This document shows positions 6,201 through 42,800 of a stretch of 64,000 nucleotides of DNA, one piece after another. The position numbers were made by a program, and so were the translations under genes. This stretch comes from Octopus sinensis. Its lineage: Eukaryota. Positions within the stretch are counted from its first letter, which is position 1. Every line of letters starts with the position of its first letter. Under the pieces are notes generated by a model, which saw only the letters and a program-made list of their open reading frames with translations, was not told the DNA's origin and made no database searches. The stretch spans positions 54,870,001 to 54,934,000 of the forward strand of contig NC_043007.1 of NCBI RefSeq assembly GCF_006345805.1, read 5' to 3'.

Positions 6201-9200
6201 ACTTAACTGTGATAGTCAACTGACCCTCAACATTTACATAGTCTTCTTCTATATTGTTTTTTTTTTAAATTTAGTTTTTGTCACGATTTGTGAACAATAA
6301 TGTGATTGGCCACAAGTTATGTGGTGATCTCACTAGTGCTGGTGCCAGGAAAAATACAAAGAGTCTAAGATTTCCCCTGACCCACTTCCTAAGGAGTGAG
6401 ATAAATGAAACTTGGCATAATTATTAGTCCTCTACATAGCTACCACAAATGTTGACACACTTCTCCCATCGTTTTAGGCAGCCGTGAAGATCTTGTCTGT
6501 ATAGAAGTCGGTAGACTACATCTTGGAAAGAAGTTCATCATCACCCAAAAAGTGCTTTCTCTTCAAAAAAGACTTGATGGTTGGAAAGAGGTGGAAGTTA
6601 GATGGTGCAAGGTTGGGAGTGTAAGGGGATAAGGTAGGATTTCGTAGCTGTAGGAGTATGCTTTCATCTGTGCAACATACACAATGTGAATTAGGGCTTT
6701 GTCTTGGCAGAGGCTGACTCCTTTGGTCAGTATGCTGGGCATCTCTGCTTTGATGGTGTCCTGCAATTTCTGTGGCAGAGAGGCATAATATGCCCCATAA
6801 ATTGTGGTGCCCTTTGCCAGAAGATCCATCATCATCACTCTGTGCTGGTCCAAAAAGACTGAGCATCACCTTATCTGCTGAGGGTTGGACATGAGCCTTC
6901 TTTGGCAGTGGTGAGTTATCATGCTTCTATTGCTTTGACTGGACTTTAATCTCAAGATCATAGTGATAGATCTGTATTTCATACTGTGTGATAAGTCTGC
7001 TGAAAAAGTCCTCCTCATTTTCTTGGTACATTACCAAAAGAGCCTGGGAGCAATTGACTTGTTCCTGCTTCTGAAAAGGTGTAGCATCTGGGGAATCCAT
7101 CATGCAGCCAACTTCCGCACGTGCAGGTGGTTGTGAATAACCTTTTCCACGGACTTATCTTCACTTCTTGGGCTAATTGCTGAACAGTTTGCAGTGATCT
7201 TCCAAAATGGCAGCTTCCACTTTATGGATGGTGTCATCATCAATGGCAGAATGTGGTTGTCCAGGAATAAGAGCAGTTTCCACTAATGTCCAACCACATT
7301 TGAACTGGCAATGCCACTCCATGACTATGTTGTATGATGATGCATTGTCACCATGAACTTCTTTCATCTCATTGAAAGTCTCTTTTGGTAGATGACCTTT
7401 CAAGTATAAGAACTTGATCACTGATCTGCATTCAACTGCCTCCATTATAGCACCTTAGTTCACTTCAGCAGCTGTAAAAGACAAACGAATACTAGTGGAA
7501 AGCTGAAATTTATAATGTGACATGTAGAGACATGTATGATTATACCTGTACAAGTTCCATTTCCTGCAATAACTGCAAGTGGGTTAGGGGAAATCTTTAA
7601 TGAACACCCCTTGTATATGTAGCACACTCCATAAAGTGCTTGGAGTTAGGAAGTGCAACCATCCGTAGAAACCATGTGAAAACTGATACATTAGAGTGAG
7701 ATATGGTCCTAACATGGATCTTGTTGACCTGTTCAAGCTATGCCAACATGGAAAGCAGACAAAATGATGATGATGATAGCTTCATTTGCATTTGAGTTTC
7801 CTAAAAAGCGATTTATATTTCTCTCTCTCCACAGACAGCTCCCTACTTGAAATACTTTCTCTATATTCATACTCTGTTCTTCCCTTTATTTCCATGGGTC
7901 CTTCCAGTTTCTCCTTCTCTCACTGCTCTTGTTGCACTCACCTACTGCTTTCCCATCCTCTGTCTCTTTTTCTCTCATTCTTCTCTTCCCAGAGCTTTCA
8001 TGTTTTCTTTCGTGTTCCCTTCATACCTTTTCATATAATGTTTTCCCCACCTTCATAACCCACCTTACTACTCTGTTGCTTTCTCATTAACCAATCTCTT
8101 CTCTTTTCCCAATCCCTTTCATAATCCTTCCCTTCACTACCTCTCTTTCACACCTATAAATCTGTTACTGTCATCATCACTTTATCCTCTCTCATTTTCC
8201 CACCTAGAATCATCATACACCCTTGCCTATTCTTCTACAGTTATACAGACCCCCTTTTAGACCCTTAGTCTTGCAAGTTGCATAAAAAAAACACACTCAG
8301 TATACTTTGTGAAGTGGTTGACATTAGGAAGCCATATAAACATTGCTAAAAATCAAACATTGGAGCTTGACACAGTTGTCTGAGGAACTCTTTTACCTTC
8401 CATCAATACAAATAAATCAATAGTAATATTCAAAAAAATCTCACCCTTTACTTAAGCACTAAGTGAATATTTGTAAACACAAAAATACATTTGTTTTTAA
8501 TTATAAACATACAAAATTCACTGAAATAATGAAAATAATAAATTAACGATATTTTATGACCATGATGAGATTTTTAAAATTGGTAACATATTTAATCAGG
8601 TATTTTATATACTTCTCTATTCACAGCTTCGGAAACATCTCCGGGGTCGTCGTTTGGAGGCTGTGCATCAGCTTGGCGTCGACCGAGTTGTTGATTTACA
8701 GTTTGGTTCATCAGAAGCAGCTTATCATGTAATATTAGAGATGTATGATCGTGTAAGGCAATTAGATTTTTTACCTTATTCTTTTACTTAGTTTCTTTGT
8801 TGGCTTTTCATGTAGTCAATTTTGTTTTTTGCTGGCAGGGTTGTCAGTCATGATTTTCAAATTTTCTTTTTTTCTAGGGAAATATTGTTTTAACAGATTA
8901 TAATTATGTTATCTTAAATATTTTGCGCCCTCGGTCCAATGAGAGTGAAGATGTAAAGCTTGTCGTTCGGGAGAGATACCCAGTTAGCAGTGCCAAGCAA
9001 TATGAACCTGTTGAACGTGAAAAGTAAGGCCATCTTTGTTTCCTTACACTATAGACTGCTATTTCTACTTGTGCATTGTTGAATTGATGTGTCATTGATT
9101 AGCTTATAAGAAAAAACAAAAACAAAAAATTACTGTAATATCTTGTAATATGATTGGATTTAGGAGCTGATGATTTCATCAATATGTAGTGATTGAAAGA

Positions 9201-29700: not shown

Positions 29701-32700
29701 CCAGGACTGCCACTTTATGTTGGCAAATAGTTTTTACTTTAAAGTACTCTTACTGAATACCTCTTTTTGAGAGATTTAGAAAGAATAATGTTTATATATA
29801 TATTGTTACGAACCTGCCGTCGCTCAACTCGAACTCGGGACCCTACTAAGTCGAGCGACGACGACTACCACGCTCAGTCAAATCGGAAATCCACCACAGA
29901 AAACGGTGGTGGGGATGGCAGCGAACACAGACCGGAGACAACAACAACAACAACAGGAAGAGAGAGACAGCGGAAGGCAGTTGCTTACATTTAACAACAG
30001 TTTATACAATTTTTATAACGTCAAATAAAACGTAATACATATCAGATACATTTAAAGAAAAACATCTAACAGATTGTACAGAGTTAAAAGAAAAACAATC
30101 AATGCATTTAAACGTAACACAACGTCCAAAAACAATCAAAACAAATGTTCAACACAATACAGAGTTCGAAAACAGTCCACATTAAAGTCTTTCTCTTCTC
30201 TTCAACAATTCTTTTTACATTTCAATAGATTACAGTTTATGTCACAATGTTCTTTTCCCTTCTTTTTCCTTCTCTTTTTACAGTTCTTTTGATACAATGT
30301 TCTTTTTCCTTTTTTTCTGACACAGTTCACAAGTTCTTTTCTCTTTTCTTTTAACGCACATCACCATCCAAAATTCGACAACAAAAACATAAACAAACAT
30401 TACCACACGTTCTGAGTCTGCAACAATTTCAGCTCCTACTACAACACGGCCTTCTCGCCATAATCTCCCTCACTTCCTCTCGCTTGACAAATCCTCAATC
30501 CCCTGTGTCTGTCTTTCTCGCCATCACAACCGACTCTGCATTGACCCTCACGCCAACTGACTATCAAACCCCCAGCTTGCCGCATTTTAAAGGGTGGTAG
30601 ATTTATTTTTTTCTTAAACTTTCCCTGACTGTAGGGATCAAAAAATGTCACTTCCTAACACATTAATTTTCCCTACAGATGACAGGACAAAGTGCCATAA
30701 CTTCTTTCGCCAGTCCATCTGGCACTAAACCAACGAAACTGGGTCATAACACTTTTTCTTCAACTGACCTTGTATCAATATATATATATATATATATTAG
30801 CAGAGACACCCAGCGTTACCTGGGAATGAAATTGTTCATAATATATTGGAAGAAAAACGCAAAATATGTTGTCTAGAAATTTGTTATTCTAAATTCAATT
30901 TATTCTTTAATTGGGAAATCAATTCTGAATTCATAATACAAAAAAAAACAAAAAAACTACAAAATTTGCCACTTTTATGAAGAGAGATAAATTCTATCAC
31001 ATATGATGAAGTAAATTACGTATCCATCTTGGCTAAATACATAGATTAATAGATACTGGAGTGCATCATATGATTGGTGGGCGACATTTATCTGTTGAAT
31101 TTTATTTCCTCTTCTTTGAATAATATTTCTCTTCCTCGTCGCCTGTAATAATTACTGCTACTTCATTTGTAGCTGGCACATTGTAGCAGTCTCTGTGCTC
31201 AGAAATAGGCTTTTTGTTTGCATCAATAACTATCTTGTATTCAGCGGGTGGTGCAGATTCCAGTACATACTTGAAGCTTCTGATGTAGCTATTATTTGCA
31301 TGCAACATAACTTGCAGATCAAAGATTAACTCTTCTTTCAAATTAGGAAGGTTAAGTGACCATTGCAAAGCCTGCTCCTTGTAATTTGCCACAAAATATA
31401 GCTGTAAAAATTGAGGATTGTTGCCTTCAGATGGCAACAAAGATCCAATACAATGATATACTTGACCTTGAACTTTGCTATCAAAGGAGGTCATTTGGAA
31501 AGCAGAATTATAATTCCTAATGTTTTTCAAGAAGTGCATGCTCGTTGGTGTGTTTCCCAAAAGCAATGCCTTCAAAGTATCTGTGGGTGTATCCAATGTC
31601 CGTAAAACAACTGTTCCTCCATCGCAACACATAGTGGTGGTTTCGCTTTCCCATTTCTTTCCTTTACAAAAACTGCACCCCTTGACACTGCTCTAATATC
31701 AATCAATTTCTCTGTAGGATAATCATGTTTTGGATCATAGTTGGAAGCTGATCTTTTCCAAGTTTCCTTAAAATGTGCAATTCTTGATGAAAATGTTTAC
31801 ATCTTTCCTCTGAGGATTGGTGAAGTCTTGCAGCAACTGTTTACTCCTGGTTTTTCCTTTGTCTCATCTCTTGCTGATCTATTGTCTCATTCCCAACTCT
31901 GGCAGCTTGTCTATGTCTTGCATCCTTTAAACGTTTTCTCTTTTTTGACTCTTGGCTCCTGCGGATTGCATTTTGTTGACATAATTGTTCTAATCATTTT
32001 ATCTTTGCCTCTTGTGTCTTATTAGCCCTCTTGTGCAGCAGCTCTCCTTTGGTAATTTTCATGTCTTTGCTGTTGTTGTGCAGGAGTCTCTAGTGACCTT
32101 ACTGTGGCTATCTGTACTTATCTTTGCTTCACTGTAGAATACTGATCCTCTACATCTACCCTGTCTCCTCTTGTGGAGAGTGAGAACATTTTTCTTGGAA
32201 ACATTTTTGAAAATTAAAATGGTGATTAAATGAAAAAATGAGTGAAAGTTATGTGAATATTTTCATAAGAGTGATTGAAAAAATGGCGATTGTGGCCGCC
32301 ACATGTACATGCGCACACACATACACATCATACATGCAGTATCAAACATCAGCGTCTCTCTCTCTCACTTTCCCCCTCTCTTCGTGCTGGCTTTCTTTCA
32401 ATTCACCTATAGAATATACATACAGTATTAAACATCAGTGTCTCTCTCTCTCATGCTATCCCACTTTCTTTCAACTTTTCCTATAGAAACTGGTTTTCTC
32501 TCTGTTTCTTTCTCTCTTCTCTCTATCTTTTTCTCATTCTGTATACATAGTATATGCTTACACATAGTCTCTCTTGCCCTCTGAAATAGTTCCTGTCTTT
32601 TAGTCTATGCTTGTTTCCTTCACTCTCTCTCTTTCTAATTCACTCACACACTTACACTATTTACATTTCTCCCCCTATCGAAGAACGTTGTGACGAATGC

Positions 32701-35493
32701 GAAGATTGAGGAGGAGAAGTAAAGAGCCACTTCCTCATTTTGCTTCTCTGTTTCTTTCTCTCCCCTCTCATTCACTCATTGGCATTATGCACAGACATAC
32801 AAATACACAGACATTTGCTAATATATATATATATATATATATATAATTAATTAATAAGGGTGAGAGAATTAGATACTAATTTAATAGTATATCTATTCAA
32901 CACCAAGTGGCCTAGTGCTCCGAGAAACCTGGATTATTATAATATTTTATAATATATTACAATATTTTTACAAAATAAATATAAGAGAGTGGTCACTATA
33001 TGGCTCACTCTAGCACCAGTTAATCCAAAAGGTTTCAACCACAAAAATACATGTTTCCCATGAAAGTCAGTACGATTGTTAGCTCACACGGACAGGGCAA
33101 ATAAAAAATAACAAAAATACAGATTATTTTGGGACAATTGTTTCGCTATTAATGAATTAAATGTAATTTTACTTACAAAAAAATCCACTTGTAGCTCGTC
33201 AGCCAAAACTATCTGGATGAAATCCACTCAATCACACGCCAGATTTTACCATAACGATAAATACGCGTGTGGTTCAATTGATTACATCCGACGTTATAAT
33301 TCAAATGCCCCAACTAACAGCGCGCCAAACTTTCACGGAAAACAAATACAGCATTTAGAAATAAATGCAGCATAATTATAATTAATTAATAAGGGTGAGA
33401 GAATTAGCTAATTTAATAGTATATCTATTCAACACCAAGTGGCCTAGTGCTCCGAGAAACCTGGATTATTATAATATTTTATAATATATTACAATATTTT
33501 TACAAAATAAATATAAGAGAGTGGTCACTATATGGCTCACTCTAGCACCAGTTAATCCAAAAGGTTTCAACCACAAAAATACATGTTTCCCATGAAAGTC
33601 AGTACGATTGTTAGCTCAAAATCTGGCGTGTGATTGAGTGGATTTCATCCAGATAGTTTTGGCTGACGAGCTACAAGTGGATTTTTTTGTAAGTAAAATT
33701 ACATTTAATTCATTAATAGCGAAACAATTGTCCCAAAATAATCTGTATTTTTGTTATTTTTTATTTGCCCTGTCCGTATGAGCTAACAATCGTACTGACT
33801 TTCATGGGAAACATGTTTTTTGTGGTTGAAACCTTTTGGATTAACTGGTGCTAGAGTGAGCCATATAGTGACCACTCTCTTATATTTATTTTGTAAAAAT
33901 ATTGTAATATATTATAAAATATTATAATAATCCAGGTTTCTCGGAGCACTAGGCCACTTGGTGTTGAATAGATATACTATTAAATTAGTATCTAATTCTC
34001 TCACCCTTATTAATTAATTATAATTATGCTGCATTTATTTCTAAATGCTGTATTTGTTTTCCGTGAAAGTTTGGCGCGCTGTTAGTTGGGGCATTTGAAT
34101 TATAACGTCGGATGTAATCAATTGAACCACACGCGTATTTATCGTTATGGTAAAATCTGGCGTGTGATTGAGTGGATTTCATCCAGATAGTTTTGGCTGA
34201 CGAGCTACAAGTGGATTTTTTTGTAAGTAAAATTACATTTAATTCATTAATAGCGAAACAATTGTCCCAAAATAATCTGTATTTTTGTTATTTTTTATTT
34301 GCCCTGTCCGTGTGAGCTAACAATCGTACTGACTTTCATGGGAAACATGTATTTTTGTGGTTGAAACCTTTTGGATTAACTGGTGCTAGAGTGAGCCATA
34401 TAGTGACCACTCTCTTATATTATTTTGTAAAAATATTGTAATATATTATAAAATATTATAATAATCCAGGTTTCTCGGAGCACTAGGCCACTTGGTGTTG
34501 AATAGATATACTATTAAATTAGTATCTAATTCTCTCACCCTTATTAATTAATTATAATTATGCTGCATTTATTTCTAAATGCTGTATTTGTTTTCCGTGA
34601 AAGTTTGGCGCGCTGTTAGTTGGGGCATTTGAATTATAACGTCGGATGTAATCAATTGAACCACACGCGTATTTATCGTTATGGTAAAATCTGGCGTGTG
34701 ATTGAGTGGATTTCATCCAGATAGTTTTGGCTGACGAGCTACAAGTGGATTTTTTTGTAAGTAAAATTACATTTAATTCATTAATAGCGAAACAATTGTC
34801 CCAAAATAATCTGTATTTTTGTTATTTTTTATTTGCCCTGTCCGTGTGAGCTAACAATCGTACTGACTTTCATGGGAAACATGTATTTTTGTGGTTGAAA
34901 CCTTTTGGATTAACTGGTGCTAGAGTGAGCCATATAGTGACCACTCTCTTATATTTATTTTGTAAAAATATTGTAATATATTATAAAATATTATAATAAT
35001 CCAGGTTTCTCGGAGCACTAGGCCACTTGGTGTTGAATAGATATACTATTAAATTAGTATCTAATTCTCTCACCCTTATTAATTAATTATAATTATGCTG
35101 CATTTATTTCTAAATGCTGTATTTGTTTTCCGTGAAAGTTTGGCGCGCTGTTAGTTGGGGCATTTGAATTATAACGTCGGATGTAATAATCAATTGAACC
35201 ACACGCGTATTTATCGTTATGGTAAAATCTGGCGTGTGATTGAGTGGATTTCATCCAGATAGTTTTGGCTGACGAGCTACAAGTGGATTTTTTTGTAAGT
35301 AAAATTACATTTAATTCATTAATAGCGAAACAATTGTCCCAAAATAATCTGTATTTTTGTTTTTTTATTTGCCCTGTCCGTGTGAGCTAACAATCGTACT
35401 GACTTTCATGGGAAACATGTATTTTGTGGTTGAAACCTTTTGGATTAACTGGTGCTAGAGTGAGCCATATAGTGACCACTCTCTTATATTTAT

Positions 35494-35533
<40 letters not shown>

Positions 35534-35922: not shown

Positions 35923-36849
35923 AAATGGCAGACCTCAAAAAAATAGTGGTCTATGGCAGCAAATATCAGTTCAAATAGAGCTAACAAAATATTGTTAAAG
36001 CATTGTGAAAAGGAGAGAATTCTAAGATTTTGAGCAAGGAAGAAGAATATGCTCCAAATGTTTCAATTCTTTAACATTATATTTAAAGAAACATCATCAC
36101 ATTACCTGTTAAGATTTGTAGAATTATTGATTTCTTAAAGTTTCTTTTCATCAATAATTGTCTTATTAAAAATTAACTTTCAATTTCAGGAGTTGGATAC
36201 TTTAAAAGGTCAGTTTATTGAATACAATCTAACATTGGTAAGTGATTAATTTTGTAATTACTTAGTAAATACGCTTGTGAAAGTCAATAGTATACATTTG
36301 TTGTTCTTGTGTTGGATTGACATAACCATAACTCATGCTTGAAGCAGAGAGAGTAGTTCATTAAATGACTGAAAGAATATTTAAATCCATGATAAAACAT
36401 GCTAGGCTTTTATTAGTCACTCCACTAAGTGGCCAGACTTTGCCAGTATATATATATATATATATATCATTATCATCATCATTGTTTTAATATTTACTTT
36501 TTCATGTTTGCATGGGATGGACAGAGTTTGTTGAGGTGGATTTTCTATGGCTGGATGCCCTGCCCGTTGCTAATCCTCACCTGCTTCCAAGTAAGGTAAT
36601 ATGTCCCCATGACCAAACATAGAAATGAAGGACACCATTTGCATTACGGTATCACTTACAACTAACACATTATGTCAAGGCAAAAGGACAGTAACACACA
36701 CACAATTTTAGTTTCCATCTAACAAATCCACTTACAAGGCTTTGGTTGGTCTGTGACTATAGTAGAAGACACTTACCTAAGGTACCACACACTAGTATTG
36801 AACCCTGAACTATGAGGTTGGGAAGTAAACTTCTCATCATACACCCCTG

Positions 36850-36886
<37 letters not shown>

Positions 36887-39800
36887 GAGGGACGTTCAAT
36901 AAGTAATGCCCCTGACCCACTTGCAATTGTTTGATCTAGCTGAAATATTGCATGTGCAATTATTTGTATCTCTATAGATTAAGTGGCAAATTACAGCTCT
37001 AAACTAATTGTGGTTTCTGATTTACAGGTGTTTGAACTGAGTCAAGTGTGAAATGGAGCCTGTTGAGTGTCGAGCAGTGATCCGGGTTTTGTATTTGAAA
37101 GGACGCACACCACGGGAGACTTTTGTTGAAATGAAAGTAACTTATGGTGATGATGCCCCATCATATGACCTTGTAAAATGTTGGCATCGTGAATTCAGAC
37201 ATGGTCAGAACTCTGTGGAAACAGCTCCCAGATCTGGTTGCCCTACTTCTGCCATTGATGAGGCATCTGTCCGTCAAGTTGAGGCTGCCATTTTGGAAGA
37301 TCGACTCATGACTATTCGCCAAATAGCCCATGAGGTCAAGATTAGTACCGGGTCTGTGGAAACTATCATTCATGACCATTTGCATATGCAAAAGGTATCT
37401 GCCAGATGGATTCCCAGGTTGCTCACACCTTTCCAGAAGCAAGAACGCGTCGAGTGCTCGAGGATGAATTTGGAGATGTGCCAAGAAGATGAGTCAAGAT
37501 TTTTCAAAAGACTGATTACACAGGATGAAACCTGGGTCCATCACTATGATCCAGAGACCAAAGTCCAGTCAATGCAGTGGAAGCACCGTGACTCACCTCC
37601 TCCAAAGAAGGCAAGGGTGCAGCCCTCCGCTGGCAAGGTCATGCTCACAGTCTTCTGGGACCAGGACGGAGTAGTGATGACAGATTTCCTGGCAAAGGGT
37701 ACCACAATTACAGGAGCCTATTATACTTCACTTTTGAGGAAATCAAGAGAAGCTATCAAAATCAAGAGGCGGGGCAAGATCAGCAAAGGTATTCTCCTCC
37801 TGCAGGACATCGCTCCGGTCCACAACTCGCGTGTCGCCAGATCAGAAGCACAGGCGTGCGGTTATGAACTCCTCCCCCATCCTGACCTTGCACCCTCTGA
37901 TTTTCACTTCTTCCCAGCCATGAAGCTGTTTTTGAAAGGAAAGCGTTTCCCAGATGATGCAGCCTTGATTTCTGAAGTCACGTCGTGGTTGGAGGACCAA
38001 GCTGGGGTCTTCTACAAAAACGGTCTTCAGAGCTGCATCAAACGATGGGAGAAATGCGTAACTCTGGGTAGTTCCTATGTAGAAAAAGACTAATAACTGT
38101 GCCAAGTTTCGTTGCTCTACTGCTATGGGAAGTGGGTCAGGAGCATTACTTATTGAACGCCCCTCGTATATATATGTCCCTCTTGCATTTCTTGAGGCTC
38201 TTCTTTTCCTCTGCGGCCTTCAAGAGCTTCTCCATCCGGTATGCCTCAAAGTCTTTCTTTAGTTGCTGACGAATCACTCTGCTGAGAATGGAATATTCAA
38301 GATGATCTTCAATAGTCCTCTTCATATTTTTCCTCTTCTCGAGTAACTTCGTAGTTTCTTCCGAGATTCTTCCCTTCTTTTCTCTTGGGCATACACCCTT
38401 AGCCTTCCTTAAACACTCCTTCAGTTTCCCTATCAGTGAGTTGTAGTCATCATCTATGTCGCCTCCTTGGCACCAGTCTTCCTGCATGATGGCTTCCTGC
38501 ATGATGGCTTCCTGCAGCTTTGTCTCGTAGACTCGGACACGTTTTCCCTTCGACGCCAAATATAACGCAATCTTCTCCCTCTTCTCGTCGATGACGACCC
38601 TCGCCCTTACCAGACGATGATCACTGCCGGTGTTGAATGGCGTCACGACGGAGACGTCATGCAATATGCGTTGCTTATTAACCAGGATGTAGTCGATCTC
38701 GCTTCGGTGCTTAGAGTTTGGCGATATTCAAGTCCATCTCTTCCTCTCCCTCTTCCTGAATAGGCTGTTTCCGATGTAGAGCTGCCTCGCCTCTGCCATG
38801 GTAGCCAAACGTTCTCCTCTCTCGTTTCTCTCTCCCATGCCAAATCTCCCGATGTATTCCTCTCCTTGTCGTCCATGTCCAACCTTTGCATTGAAGTCTC
38901 CCATCACGACAGTGTAAGTGGACTTCATAGCCAACCCTTTGTCTAGTTGTCGATAGAATTCTTCCACCTCGTTGTTGTCGCTGGAACTTGTGGGAGCATA
39001 GGTCTGGACAATCTTGAGGGTGGCCTTCCCTGAGAGGTTCACATTTAGTACACCAATCTGTGATGATATGAAGTGGCAAGAAGCGACCCTCGAAGCCCAT
39101 TCCTTACTTACGATGAATCTGATACCTCCGACCGATCTAGCACCTTCTGCTCTTCCTAATCTCACAATGCAATCATCTTACCACCGTATACTCGCTTCCT
39201 TCTTCCAGCGTGTCTCGCACAGCCCTAACATGTCACACCTGATCTTCTTCCTCTCCTCCATTAGGTGGTTCAGTTCTTGCCACCCTGCCATAGACCTGCA
39301 GTTGTAGGTGCATATGGCAAGTTTAGTCCTGTTCCATGACGGCTTTCGGGAACCTGTGATTCTTAGCAGCCTCTCGTCGCTCGAGTTGCACTCCGCCGTC
39401 ATGGAGTGGCCCGATTGACGTGCAGGGTACTGAGGCCCTTTTCCTTTTCTCTTTGTTCTTCGTGCTGTTTTAGCCATAAGATGACGCCATCCCACTGGCT
39501 GGGCGGGCAGGCCGGTATTTTGTTGGATGGCCGTTGACTCTTCAGGAGTTCATCCGCCCTTTGTTGGGTCTTATTTTTCCATCCCACAGGGAGTTCAACA
39601 GCACCCTCCTCACCAAGCGAACCTGGTGGGGTTGTCAGTTTAGTCGCTGACGTCCCGACCATGCAACAGGTTGTACTGGATTACATGTTACCAGTAGCAC
39701 TCTGGAGCGACCTGACATATGCAAGAAATGCACGAGGGACATGGTACTATATAGATCGGAGGTGACGGCCCTGAAAAATACAGATGGAATACCAGTCAAC

Positions 39801-42800
39801 GAGAAGAGCGAGATGGAAAAAATTTGTGAAGACTTCTACACCAAGCTCTTTAAGTCTACCAGAAATGTCCAGCCGTTACCACCACTCCAACAGGAAGAAA
39901 ACGTGCCACCTATCCTTGTCAGTGAGGTTGAAAGAGCCATCAGCTTGATGAAAAACGGAAAGGCTCCAGGGAAAGACGGTATAACATTGGAGGTGCTAAA
40001 GTCAGGCAGAGAGCAGCTCTGGAAAATCCTTGCTGAGCGATTTATGCACTATCTAGACGAGGGAAGAATTCCCTCGCAGTGGAAAGAGTCAAATACCATC
40101 CTGCTGTATAACAAGGGCGACAGAGAAGATCTAAAGAACTACCGACCCATATGCCTGCTGTCTCACGTGTACAAGCTGTTCACGAAGATAATTCTGAACA
40201 GGTTGTCACGTCGTCTCGACGAACAACAACCGAGGGAGCAAGCAGGCTTCCGGAAGAACTACAGCACAATGGACCATATATTTGCTCTAACGCAACTGCT
40301 TGAGCGAGCAAATGAGTACAAGCTGCCTCTTTGCGTTGCGTTTATAGATTATGAGAAGGCCTTCGATAGAATCGAAACCAACGCAGTGCTGAACTCGCTG
40401 CAGAGGCAAGGAATCGAAGCGAAATATGTGCAGCTGCTCAGAGAGGCAAATTCCGGATGCATCACCGACATAGCTCTACTGTCATCACCCATACGAGTGC
40501 CGGTCGAGAAGGGAGTGAAACAAGGAGATACAATCTCTCCCAAACTTTTCACTGCATGTCTTGAACAGATCATCAGAGGCATCGAATGGCAAGGTGGTGT
40601 CAACATCAATGGCGAGCTCCTCCCTCACCTCCGTTTCGCTGACGACATCGTACTCATCACTGAAAACATGGATCAGCTTCAGACCATGCTGACGGAGCTC
40701 GACATCAAAAGTTCTGCAGTAGGTTTCAAGATGAAAACAAAGTTCATGCGGTCAGACAACGTACCAACAGATCAAATGGTGATCGGCAGTGATGAAATAG
40801 AGGAGGTGAGAGAATATGTCTACCTGGGACAGGAAGTAAATATGTGCCGGGATATCAAAAAGGAGATCTCACGGAGAGTAAGGGCCGGATGGAAGGCATT
40901 CAATGGCATAAGGGATGTGCTCAAGGGAAGGTTGGACAGGACCACCCGCGCCAACCTCATTAACAGTGCAGTTCTACCTGCAATGTTATATGGTAGTGAA
41001 ACATGGGCTACCACAAAGAGAGAAGAGCAAAGACTGATAACGGCTCAAAGAGCCATGGAAAGGTCAATGCTTGGTATCTTGTTGAGAGAGCACATAAATA
41101 GCAACATCATCAGAAAGAAGTCTGCCGTGAGAGATGTCATCGCAGAGTATACTCGCAGCAAGTATAGATGGGCTGGACACGTCGCCCGGCTCACCGATAA
41201 TCGGTGGACGCACGCAGTTGTCAAGTGGTACCCGCGTGAGCGGAAAAGACCACCCGGAAGACCTCCACGACGGTGGAGTGACGATTTCAAGAGGACAATT
41301 GGGATCACGTGGATGAGAAAGGTGCGATCCAGAGAGGAGTGGACAGCGTGCTGTGACCAGCGGTGTCAAATGGACGCCTGACGGACTGGTCAGTCAAAGT
41401 GATCAAAGTGATATATATATATCATTGTGTTGACCAGACTATCAGATGTTCTTCACAATGCGCTTCCTTGCATTATTTTAGCTTTCAAATGATGGAATGA
41501 TGTCACCCTGGTGATTAGGTGGGCAGGCCAAGTTTTTCCCCCCATGTACAGAATGTCAATCCATTGTAGACTCATTTATAGCTGAGTGAAATGAAGTATT
41601 TTGCTCAAGAACACAATGTGCCATAGATCTAGAAATTGAAACCACAATCTTGCAACTGTGAGTTCAACACTCTGACAACTAGGTTGTGAGCCTTCACTCA
41701 CACCCACCCGCACACATGCACGCACACCTGTATGACCCCTGAAAGTCATAGTCATAGACCCATTCAGGAGCAATGGACAATGATGCTTTACCATTTTTGT
41801 GACTTATCAATATCTGCACACAAGTGTTGTAAACATTATCAGACACACATACACTATGTATGTTCTTTGATTGTTTGCTAGTCAGCTGTGATTTGACCCA
41901 GAGGAGATGACTCTCTCATCTCACCTCTATGTTTACAACATTCACACTGCTTGATTTTATTTCTACATATGCTTTGTTTAGGCATACTAGCAGATGGTTT
42001 TTACACTATCTTACATATAGTCATAGACAGGCTATCCAATTTGCCTCTGGTTCGGTTCAAGTATGTGATGTTGATAAGCTACAAAGATGGTGAAACATCG
42101 ATGTCCATCAGTCCTGAATAGGACTCGGAATGAGTTGTCTCACTCTTCTATGGCTATGACTTTCAGGTGATTTAACACCCTTTGCTTTGAGAGAGTTATC
42201 TCCTCCACTTCAATTTGCAGCCGACTGGCAAACAAACGAAGCACATACATTGTGTGTTTGATAATGTTTACAACACTTGTGCTGCTTCTAATTTATAATT
42301 GAATGTACACACACACACACACACACATACACACACGTCTGCTTCAGTAAACTCTGTCCAACCTATGCAAGCATGGTAAAGTGGATGTTAAAATGATGAT
42401 GGTGATGATGATGATAACTGGCATGGCATCAGTTATGATGATGCATGATCCTGATGATCTGATCAATGGAAATCCTGCTTGTGAAATTAACATACAAGTG
42501 GCTGAGCACATACAAGTAGACATGCATACCTTTAATGTAGTTCTCACAAGAAAATTCAGCATGACACACAATGTGACAAGGCTGGCCCTTTGAATTACAG
42601 TACAGCTCATTTTTGCCATCTGAGTGAATTGGAATAATGTGGAATAAGTGTCTTGCTCAAGGACTCAATGTGCCACCAGGATTCAAATTCTAGACCTTAC
42701 AGTTGTTTGCCAAATACTGATTGAAGTTTGCTTTCAATTTAAAAATTTTAAAACATTTTTACTGATAACATCCAGTTGTCTATTTTTGATATGAATTTTT

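Follow-up and report, generated by a model that had tools for sequence, protein, structure and literature searches.

Two fixed termini at the outer ends of head-to-head arrays of a predicted hammerhead retrozyme in Octopus sinensis

Retrozymes, Penelope-like elements and the octopus array

The retrozymes of the coral, the mussel and the axolotl are largely circular, and it has been proposed that the reverse transcriptase (RT) of Penelope-like elements (PLEs) copies such circles into cDNAs longer than one unit (PMC7229834, in the part available to us). The mobilisation of metazoan retrozymes by PLEs rests on co-occurrence and phylogeny.

In the twin priming of L1, both strands of the target prime cDNA and the 5' part is inverted; the second site is variable and the arms are adjacent. 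In the family described here, unlike L1, both sites are fixed and the arms overlap over whole units. PLEs show an inverted, 5'-truncated copy and a tail of 30–40 bp that is often found at one end only (available parts of PMC8557442 and PMC3846280), and how they make the inverted repeats and the one-sided tail is called undefined in PMC8557442. The literature on EN+ PLEs attributes the tail to resolution by the endonuclease and explains the inversion by self-priming (PMC8557442, PMC3846280 and PMC8969392, as far as these were available). On AT-rich DNA, the purified PLE protein PAc (Poseidon of the green anole) cleaves both strands and extends them; its reverse transcription begins at two fixed positions inside the RNA, between which the genomic tail lies, and the protein has been modelled as a dimer (PMC11167929, available part).

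The array analysed here lies in a stretch of 64,000 nucleotides of the Octopus sinensis genome (NC_043007.1, positions 54,870,001 to 54,934,000 of the forward strand; below, "the window" means this whole stretch). It occupies 32842..35496 and is one of many insertions of a repeat, with two head-to-head arms in (TA)n and a repeat unit of 534 nt, for which window 34267–34800 serves as the reference. Phases are nucleotides counted after the predicted hammerhead cut of this reference unit (Table 1). An earlier note, made from the letters of the window alone, had described two arms of about 1.45 and 3.5 units, joined at 33618 with about one shared A, with outward 3' ends in (TA)n, nearly identical copies, and ends and junction away from the ribozyme cut. 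This geometry was borne out: the arms and their junction are as listed in Table 1, both outer ends meet (TA)n called by TRF, the predicted cut sites coincide with neither array end nor junction, and the unit copies vary by one substitution (33778) and by indels of 1–3 nt.

Table 1. Parts of the array at 32842..35496 (window coordinates)
Feature	Position	Strand	Remarks
left arm	32842..33618	-	phases 47–534 then 1–290; 777 nt = 1.46 units; 3' end = A terminus
right arm	33618..35496	+	phases 420–534, three whole units, 1–160; 1879 nt = 3.52 units; 3' end = B terminus
inversion junction	33618..33618	.	phase 47 meets phase 420; one A common to both arms; without palindrome
left (TA)n target tract	32821..32845	.	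TRF; final TATA common to tract and A end
right (TA)n target tract, after four extra bases	35497..35533	.	TRF match 35485–35533
130-nt "tail"	32842..32971	-	phases 161–290; A end has the tail, B end is without it; phase mapping
predicted type I hammerhead, left arm	33120..33215	-	cut between 33133 and 33132
predicted type I hammerhead 1	33650..33745	+	cut after 33732
predicted type I hammerhead 2	34184..34279	+	cut after 34266; alignment against family 2
predicted type I hammerhead 3	34718..34813	+	cut after 34800
predicted type I hammerhead 4	35256..35351	+	cut after 35338

The two arms are 99–100% complementary over up to 574 nt, which is far above chance. The array holds no reading frame of 120 aa or more, including the RT/GIY-YIG frame of an autonomous PLE; the locus has no terminal direct repeats besides the units themselves, and the GC content of the unit is about 0.32, below 50%. 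Around the array, plus-strand splice-like signals bound short segments at 36190–36238 and at about 32685–32720; read by eye, they suggest that the array lies in an intron, in which case the host pre-mRNA would hold four sense hammerheads and a long hairpin. Nearby are a mariner-type transposase frame (37041–38093, 350 aa; Transposase_1, HTH_48) and a LINE-type element (38146–41381) with a 576-aa RT frame (RVT_1) on the plus strand, beside which endonuclease-like frames on the minus strand (38146–39549) appear by eye to be an inverted 5' part. A 196-aa frame without a Pfam match (31102–31692, minus strand) presumably resembles a Helitron fragment.

Each unit carries a predicted type I hammerhead, for which self-cleavage is likewise a prediction. 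The core motif is present at all five places of the array, and every copy of the unit combines the CUGACGA core with GAAA and the GUC cut triplet; stem II has 4 bp and an inner hairpin, the minimal stem III ends in a palindromic loop, and stem I closes the motif. Stems I and II appear in the minimum-free-energy (MFE) fold of the unit. Against a sister family (family 2, below), 9 of the 22 named hammerhead pairs are altered on both sides with the core kept, effectively a single contrast between two families, while slid controls of the same comparison pair at only 29–39%. Rfam gave no match at gathering score in the window, and its U4 match in 34100–34900 (E of 3) was put down to chance. The commonest polymorphism within the hammerhead core lies at phase 469, which we take to be the free N7 position.

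The genome (2.72 Gb) contains 419 exact copies of a 24-mer from the unit core and 1894 matches, allowing up to two mismatches, to a 23-mer at the cut site. The short, tandem, non-coding, low-GC units, the predicted hammerhead in each and the many dispersed loci therefore class the repeat, by sequence and structure, as a non-LTR retrozyme and not as an autonomous Penelope-like element. These traits are those given for metazoan non-LTR retrozymes in the available parts of PMC7229834, PMC7761336 and bioRxiv 10.64898/2026.07.22.740005. The unit is longer than the 170–400 nt of metazoan retrozymes and falls inside the range of 51–972 bp of the bioRxiv study; circles and cleavage have been demonstrated in metazoan retrozymes, whereas the octopus family is known here from sequence. 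Head-to-head arms, fixed paired termini and (TA)n targeting are not described for metazoan retrozymes in those parts of the same three sources.

Termini and haplotypes across independent loci

The mapping covered 70 stretches besides the window and came down to 66 independent loci. Forty of the loci ranked highest in a BLAST comparison with the full unit (40 of 759 candidates scored), a choice biased to at least one unit, and 28 others came from the first 100 listed of the 419 exact-core matches. Excluded before counting were L070, L099 and L100, which overlap other stretches, and L059, L065 and the second half of L053, which have the same flanks as others.

Throughout the 66 loci, the outer ribozyme-sense 3' ends lie at two fixed phases, about 290 (A) and about 160 (B). 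Forty-three loci are inverted, every one of them head-to-head; 39 of these pair an A end with a B end, none is A/A or B/B, and four have one damaged end. That all 39 intact pairs should be A+B has a probability of 2e-12 under independent choice at even odds. Among the 23 single-arm loci, 17 end at A and 6 at B. The array in the window is an ordinary A/B member of the family.

The inner 5' ends behave differently from the outer ends: they occur all round the unit, those of the two arms do not adjoin, and their clustering by phase is not significant (Rayleigh p 0.09, 0.47 and 0.34; scan p 0.13 and 0.05). The length of one arm does not correlate with that of the other (Spearman -0.25, p 0.12). 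The arms overlap at their junction by 0–3 nt in 31 of the 43 inverted loci, and no inversion junction is shared between any two independent loci. Most of the 23 single-arm 5' ends directly adjoin (TA)n, and no carryover of a source junction was seen. An apparent stalling of B arms before the A site (9/39 at phases 297–347) was dropped as not significant (scan test p 0.32). The junctions at L091 and L067 are complex, with two or more short additional pieces of the unit, which suggests template jumps during joining. L058 and L059 are copies of one site, yet their junctions differ; inner phases can therefore shift after insertion or in assembly.

These results bear on the idea, put forward in the earlier note, that start phases are arbitrary. 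This idea fails at the outer ends; only the inner ends scatter. At their outer ends the loci do share fixed termini, an outcome that the note had named as counting against rolling-circle copying, and they share two of them; two fixed termini are better read as fixed internal start sites of reverse transcription than as evidence against a circle.

Are the two arms products of one event? Both carry the same haplotype, defined by 11 polymorphic sites, in every one of the 41 loci that could be scored; among permuted pairs of arms, 66% are mismatched. Private variants are common to both arms in 10 instances and confined to one arm in 59. Target duplications containing G or C, of 8–18 nt and mostly 12–16, flank 13 of the 66 loci, against a mean of 2.7 and a maximum of 6 with shuffled flank pairs; most of the remaining flanks are pure TA and so uninformative, and at the window's own locus a duplication is not resolvable within the (TA)n flanks. 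Conversion between arms could raise the agreement of haplotypes but cannot make paired ends. The A+B pairing, the shared haplotypes and the target duplications therefore speak for a single event primed from both target strands, as the earlier note had proposed, and we regard twin priming at two fixed sites in one event as very probable.

The enzyme, the template and rival explanations

A sister family offers a comparison. Family 2, a retrozyme of 524 nt that is identical to the 534-nt unit at 289 of 553 columns (52%), ends at about 274 and 164, with a tail of about 110 nt. Its 27 distinct loci (the duplicates L162, L168 and L169 left out) comprise 22 A+B pairs, one shortened A end with B, three single arms and one unresolved; 22 of the 23 inverted loci are thus A+B, and the remaining one, L150, has the shortened A end, as read by eye, and a palindromic junction. 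Family 2 and autonomous loci were retrieved with queries that hold the A end, with which B/B pairs could not be sampled. Family 2 (L131:7625-8310, L142-L170; 1450 first-look candidates) has a GUA cut triplet and a U-U first pair of stem II.

The genome is rich in GIY-YIG matches; these include two RT+GIY-YIG families that are young, with proteins of 781 and 775 aa. The 775-aa element (L171, completed by L205) has a tail of about 40 nt and inserts in (TA)n. Nine inverted loci were found among 32 stretches, and seven of these have one tailed and one untailed end, the exceptions being L229 (tail/tail) and L231 (a third end). This element forms partial tandems, and a motif scan found no hammerhead inside it; length beyond one unit therefore needs no ribozyme circle. 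Both young families (L126:1474-5174; L171:4243-7877) have an extra upstream frame of about 470–480 aa that overlaps the RT/GIY-YIG frame, and the one scanned gave no convincing Pfam match.

The 534-nt family shows the Penelope-type signature, with head-to-head inverted copies, a tail at one end, and an AT-rich or microsatellite target with a short duplication. It differs from EN+ PLEs in lacking an open reading frame and in its tail of 130 nt as against 30–40; the segment between A and B is nonetheless best read as the Penelope tail. The one-sided tail counts here as a near-strict rule, as it holds in every intact inverted locus. Like PAc, the family has two fixed starts 3' of the hammerhead and AT-rich targets, whereas the PAc sites are adjacent and A and B are 130 nt apart (PMC11167929, available part).

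In 60 GIY-YIG/PLE stretches, neither BLAST nor a two-family nhmmer profile matched the unit to a PLE at the nucleotide level, 150 of 5029 GIY-YIG candidates having been scored. Matches at L128/L129, L131 and L140 proved to be only separate retrozyme insertions, and the CACCC found 16–20 nt before the A end in both retrozyme families and the 775-aa element is too short to assign a partner. The assignment to a Penelope-type enzyme is made because the insertion footprint matches, and with a high degree of confidence we attribute the writing of the array to such an enzyme.

Retrozyme arrays at L068:2268 and L128:6864-7975 are inserted within or close to the 3' (TA)n of the 781-aa element, which is consistent with targets common to both. 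The places L140:5660-6250 and 8150-8450, L124:8021-9470, and L126:884 and 6819 hold more hammerhead-bearing elements, some inverted in (TA)n, and also a distant relative of the unit in which no ribozyme is obvious.

What did this enzyme copy? In the 39 A+B loci, 31 A arms and 35 B arms cross the cut site, and both arms exceed one unit in 19 of these loci. Length changes at the cut (16/210) lie within the 3–12% of seven control windows, and 5' ends within 2 nt of it number 1 in 109, with 1.0 expected. Since the arms cross the cut precisely and 5' ends do not gather there, the template was continuous, either as a circle closed by ligation or as a multimer left uncleaved. On the same grounds we discarded run-off at the ribozyme cut and imprecise template jumps across it. 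The data suggest that retrozyme arrays are born multimeric. A monomer circle is, in our judgement, the likelier usual template.

The strongest alternative keeps twin priming at two sites and replaces the circle with an uncleaved linear multimer transcribed from a genomic array, extra length then coming from the source and from later duplication. Uncleaved RNA is the main substrate of PAc in vitro (PMC11167929, available part), and long possible masters exist, of 17.3, 13.7 and 9.4 units. At L049 (35T) and L083 (452T), moreover, private variants occupy one unit index of both arms only, a pattern for which a monomer circle would need gene conversion. Long arrays also carry graded or periodic variants, in one arm at L031, L038, L039, L042, L067, L068 and L077, and these need later turnover, multimeric templates or assembly polishing; some of them point to unit turnover after insertion, and polishing of tandem copies may blur variant patterns. 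Against copying of a multimer, however, independent loci have in common neither an inversion junction nor two unit-specific variants in the same register (ten pairs of loci share one, several of them at CpG or near ends), and the single-arm 5' ends that adjoin (TA)n retain no inherited source junction. Further, each of 12 variants is fixed in every unit of at least two loci, which implies a repeated one-unit bottleneck, and three private variants occupy all four units of both arms (L087, L094). We consider the linear multimer unlikely, though it deserves to be kept in mind.

Another possibility is that each strand is primed on its own RNA, the two RNAs being held by an asymmetric dimer. Most A arms pass the B start, as their crossing of the cut attests, so one molecule would need strand displacement, and the uncorrelated arm lengths fit two templates as well. 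The haplotype agreement and the 10 shared private variants would, however, need the same source every time, and the strict alternation of A and B is simpler with one RNA; we judge two RNAs to be distinctly improbable.

Local growth of a satellite by unequal crossover from single inserted copies, a route given in the available part of bioRxiv 10.64898/2026.07.22.740005, would account for the graded variants at L077 and L086 and the periodic ones in other long arrays. It cannot yield two arms that each exceed a unit, end at complementary fixed points and share a single target duplication, and a sub-unit arm offers no tandem overlap for expansion, yet nearly all B arms cross the cut. Unequal crossover explains later growth rather than origin, for which it is very improbable.

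The inverted arm might also have arisen by fold-back self-priming, as proposed for Penelope (PMC3846280, available part), or by later inverted duplication of DNA. Penelope has head-to-head inverted repeats with palindromic junctions in the same source, the junction of L150 is palindromic, and the distance from one inner phase to the other departs weakly from uniformity (Rayleigh p 0.025). Yet inner phases lie less than 50 nt apart in only 9 of 39 loci (about 7 by chance), and at the present locus they are 47 and 420; moreover, nothing would lead a folded-back strand to stop at the other fixed site, as every intact one does. The data argue against fold-back self-priming in the 534-nt family, for which it is largely refuted, and the fold-back and duplication routes together have hardly any probability left. 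Classical LINE-type twin priming, with one fixed 3' end, a variable second primer and adjacent, non-overlapping arms, is just as implausible: LINE-type RT genes are present and five of the 39 A arms stop at phases 148–227, close to the B start or short of it, but the arrays lack a tail of poly(A) or repeats, the outer end of either arm is fixed, the inner phases are uncoupled, the arms overlap over whole units, and the signature equals that of the resident Penelope-like element.

The transcription data are contigs of sequencing runs guessed to be RNA; none of the runs that carry the unit is recorded as RNA. In runs X1–X20, which carry nine organism labels from 12 studies, the unit word share is 0.67–0.91. 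A single 565-nt contig (534+31) in run X5 is of a kind that a circle or a tandem would each yield. Changes of A to G make up 12 of 16 changed places in run X8 and 16 of 17 in run X13, where one 229-nt contig at a depth of 2.4 has many sites absent, by eye, from two DNA runs, and another contig, at a depth of 13.8, has seven such changes in 13 bases spanning the GAAA of the ribozyme core (by eye); depth in X13 is low and the DNA runs compared come from other samples. These hyper-edited contigs lie at window 34783–34795 and 34433–34571. The abundance of A>G suggests that the paired arms are transcribed and undergo A-to-I editing, and the changes would destroy the ribozyme GAAA in those transcripts. 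A writing of such edits back into DNA was rejected, there being no excess of A>G over T>C (13 vs 14 multi-unit, p 0.56; 13 vs 19 singletons).

A proposed mechanism and its meaning

Taken as a whole, the reading that we prefer, and hold to be likely, is that of a non-coding retrozyme written in trans by a Penelope-like RT/GIY-YIG enzyme from one RNA, probably a circle. By analogy with the class (PMC7229834, available part), transcripts of the array would cleave themselves and the monomers would be ligated to circles. A Penelope-like protein, likely a dimer, would bind the RNA 3' of the ribozyme, and staggered nicks about 12–16 nt apart in (TA)n would supply two 3' primers, one beginning at phase ~290 and the other at ~160. 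Both RTs would then travel toward the 5' end of the RNA, past the cut site and for more than one unit, until the two cDNAs halted at unrelated points and were joined with an overlap of 0–3 nt. Failure of one primer would leave a single-arm insertion, and long arrays may add or exchange units later.

In its most specific form, which we advance tentatively as slightly less likely than not, the dimer would grip one circular ribozyme RNA and two RTs would start at fixed sites, one for each target strand, rolling round and displacing each other's cDNA; the tail would then be the spacing of the active sites on the RNA.

The single elements of this picture are already known or have been proposed. The counted coupling of the two fixed starts to the two target strands was not found in our literature searches, and the available part of PMC11167929 does not report for PAc that the two start sites are coupled within one insertion. 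The genome offers a countable footprint, with two starts, one per strand, and one haplotype, in two retrozyme families and an autonomous element, and the A and B phases name nucleotides that can be tested in the existing in vitro PLE system. If the proposed mechanism is true, inverted repeats, one-sided tails and retrozyme arrays would all be products of one coupled, two-site, rolling-circle form of target-primed reverse transcription.
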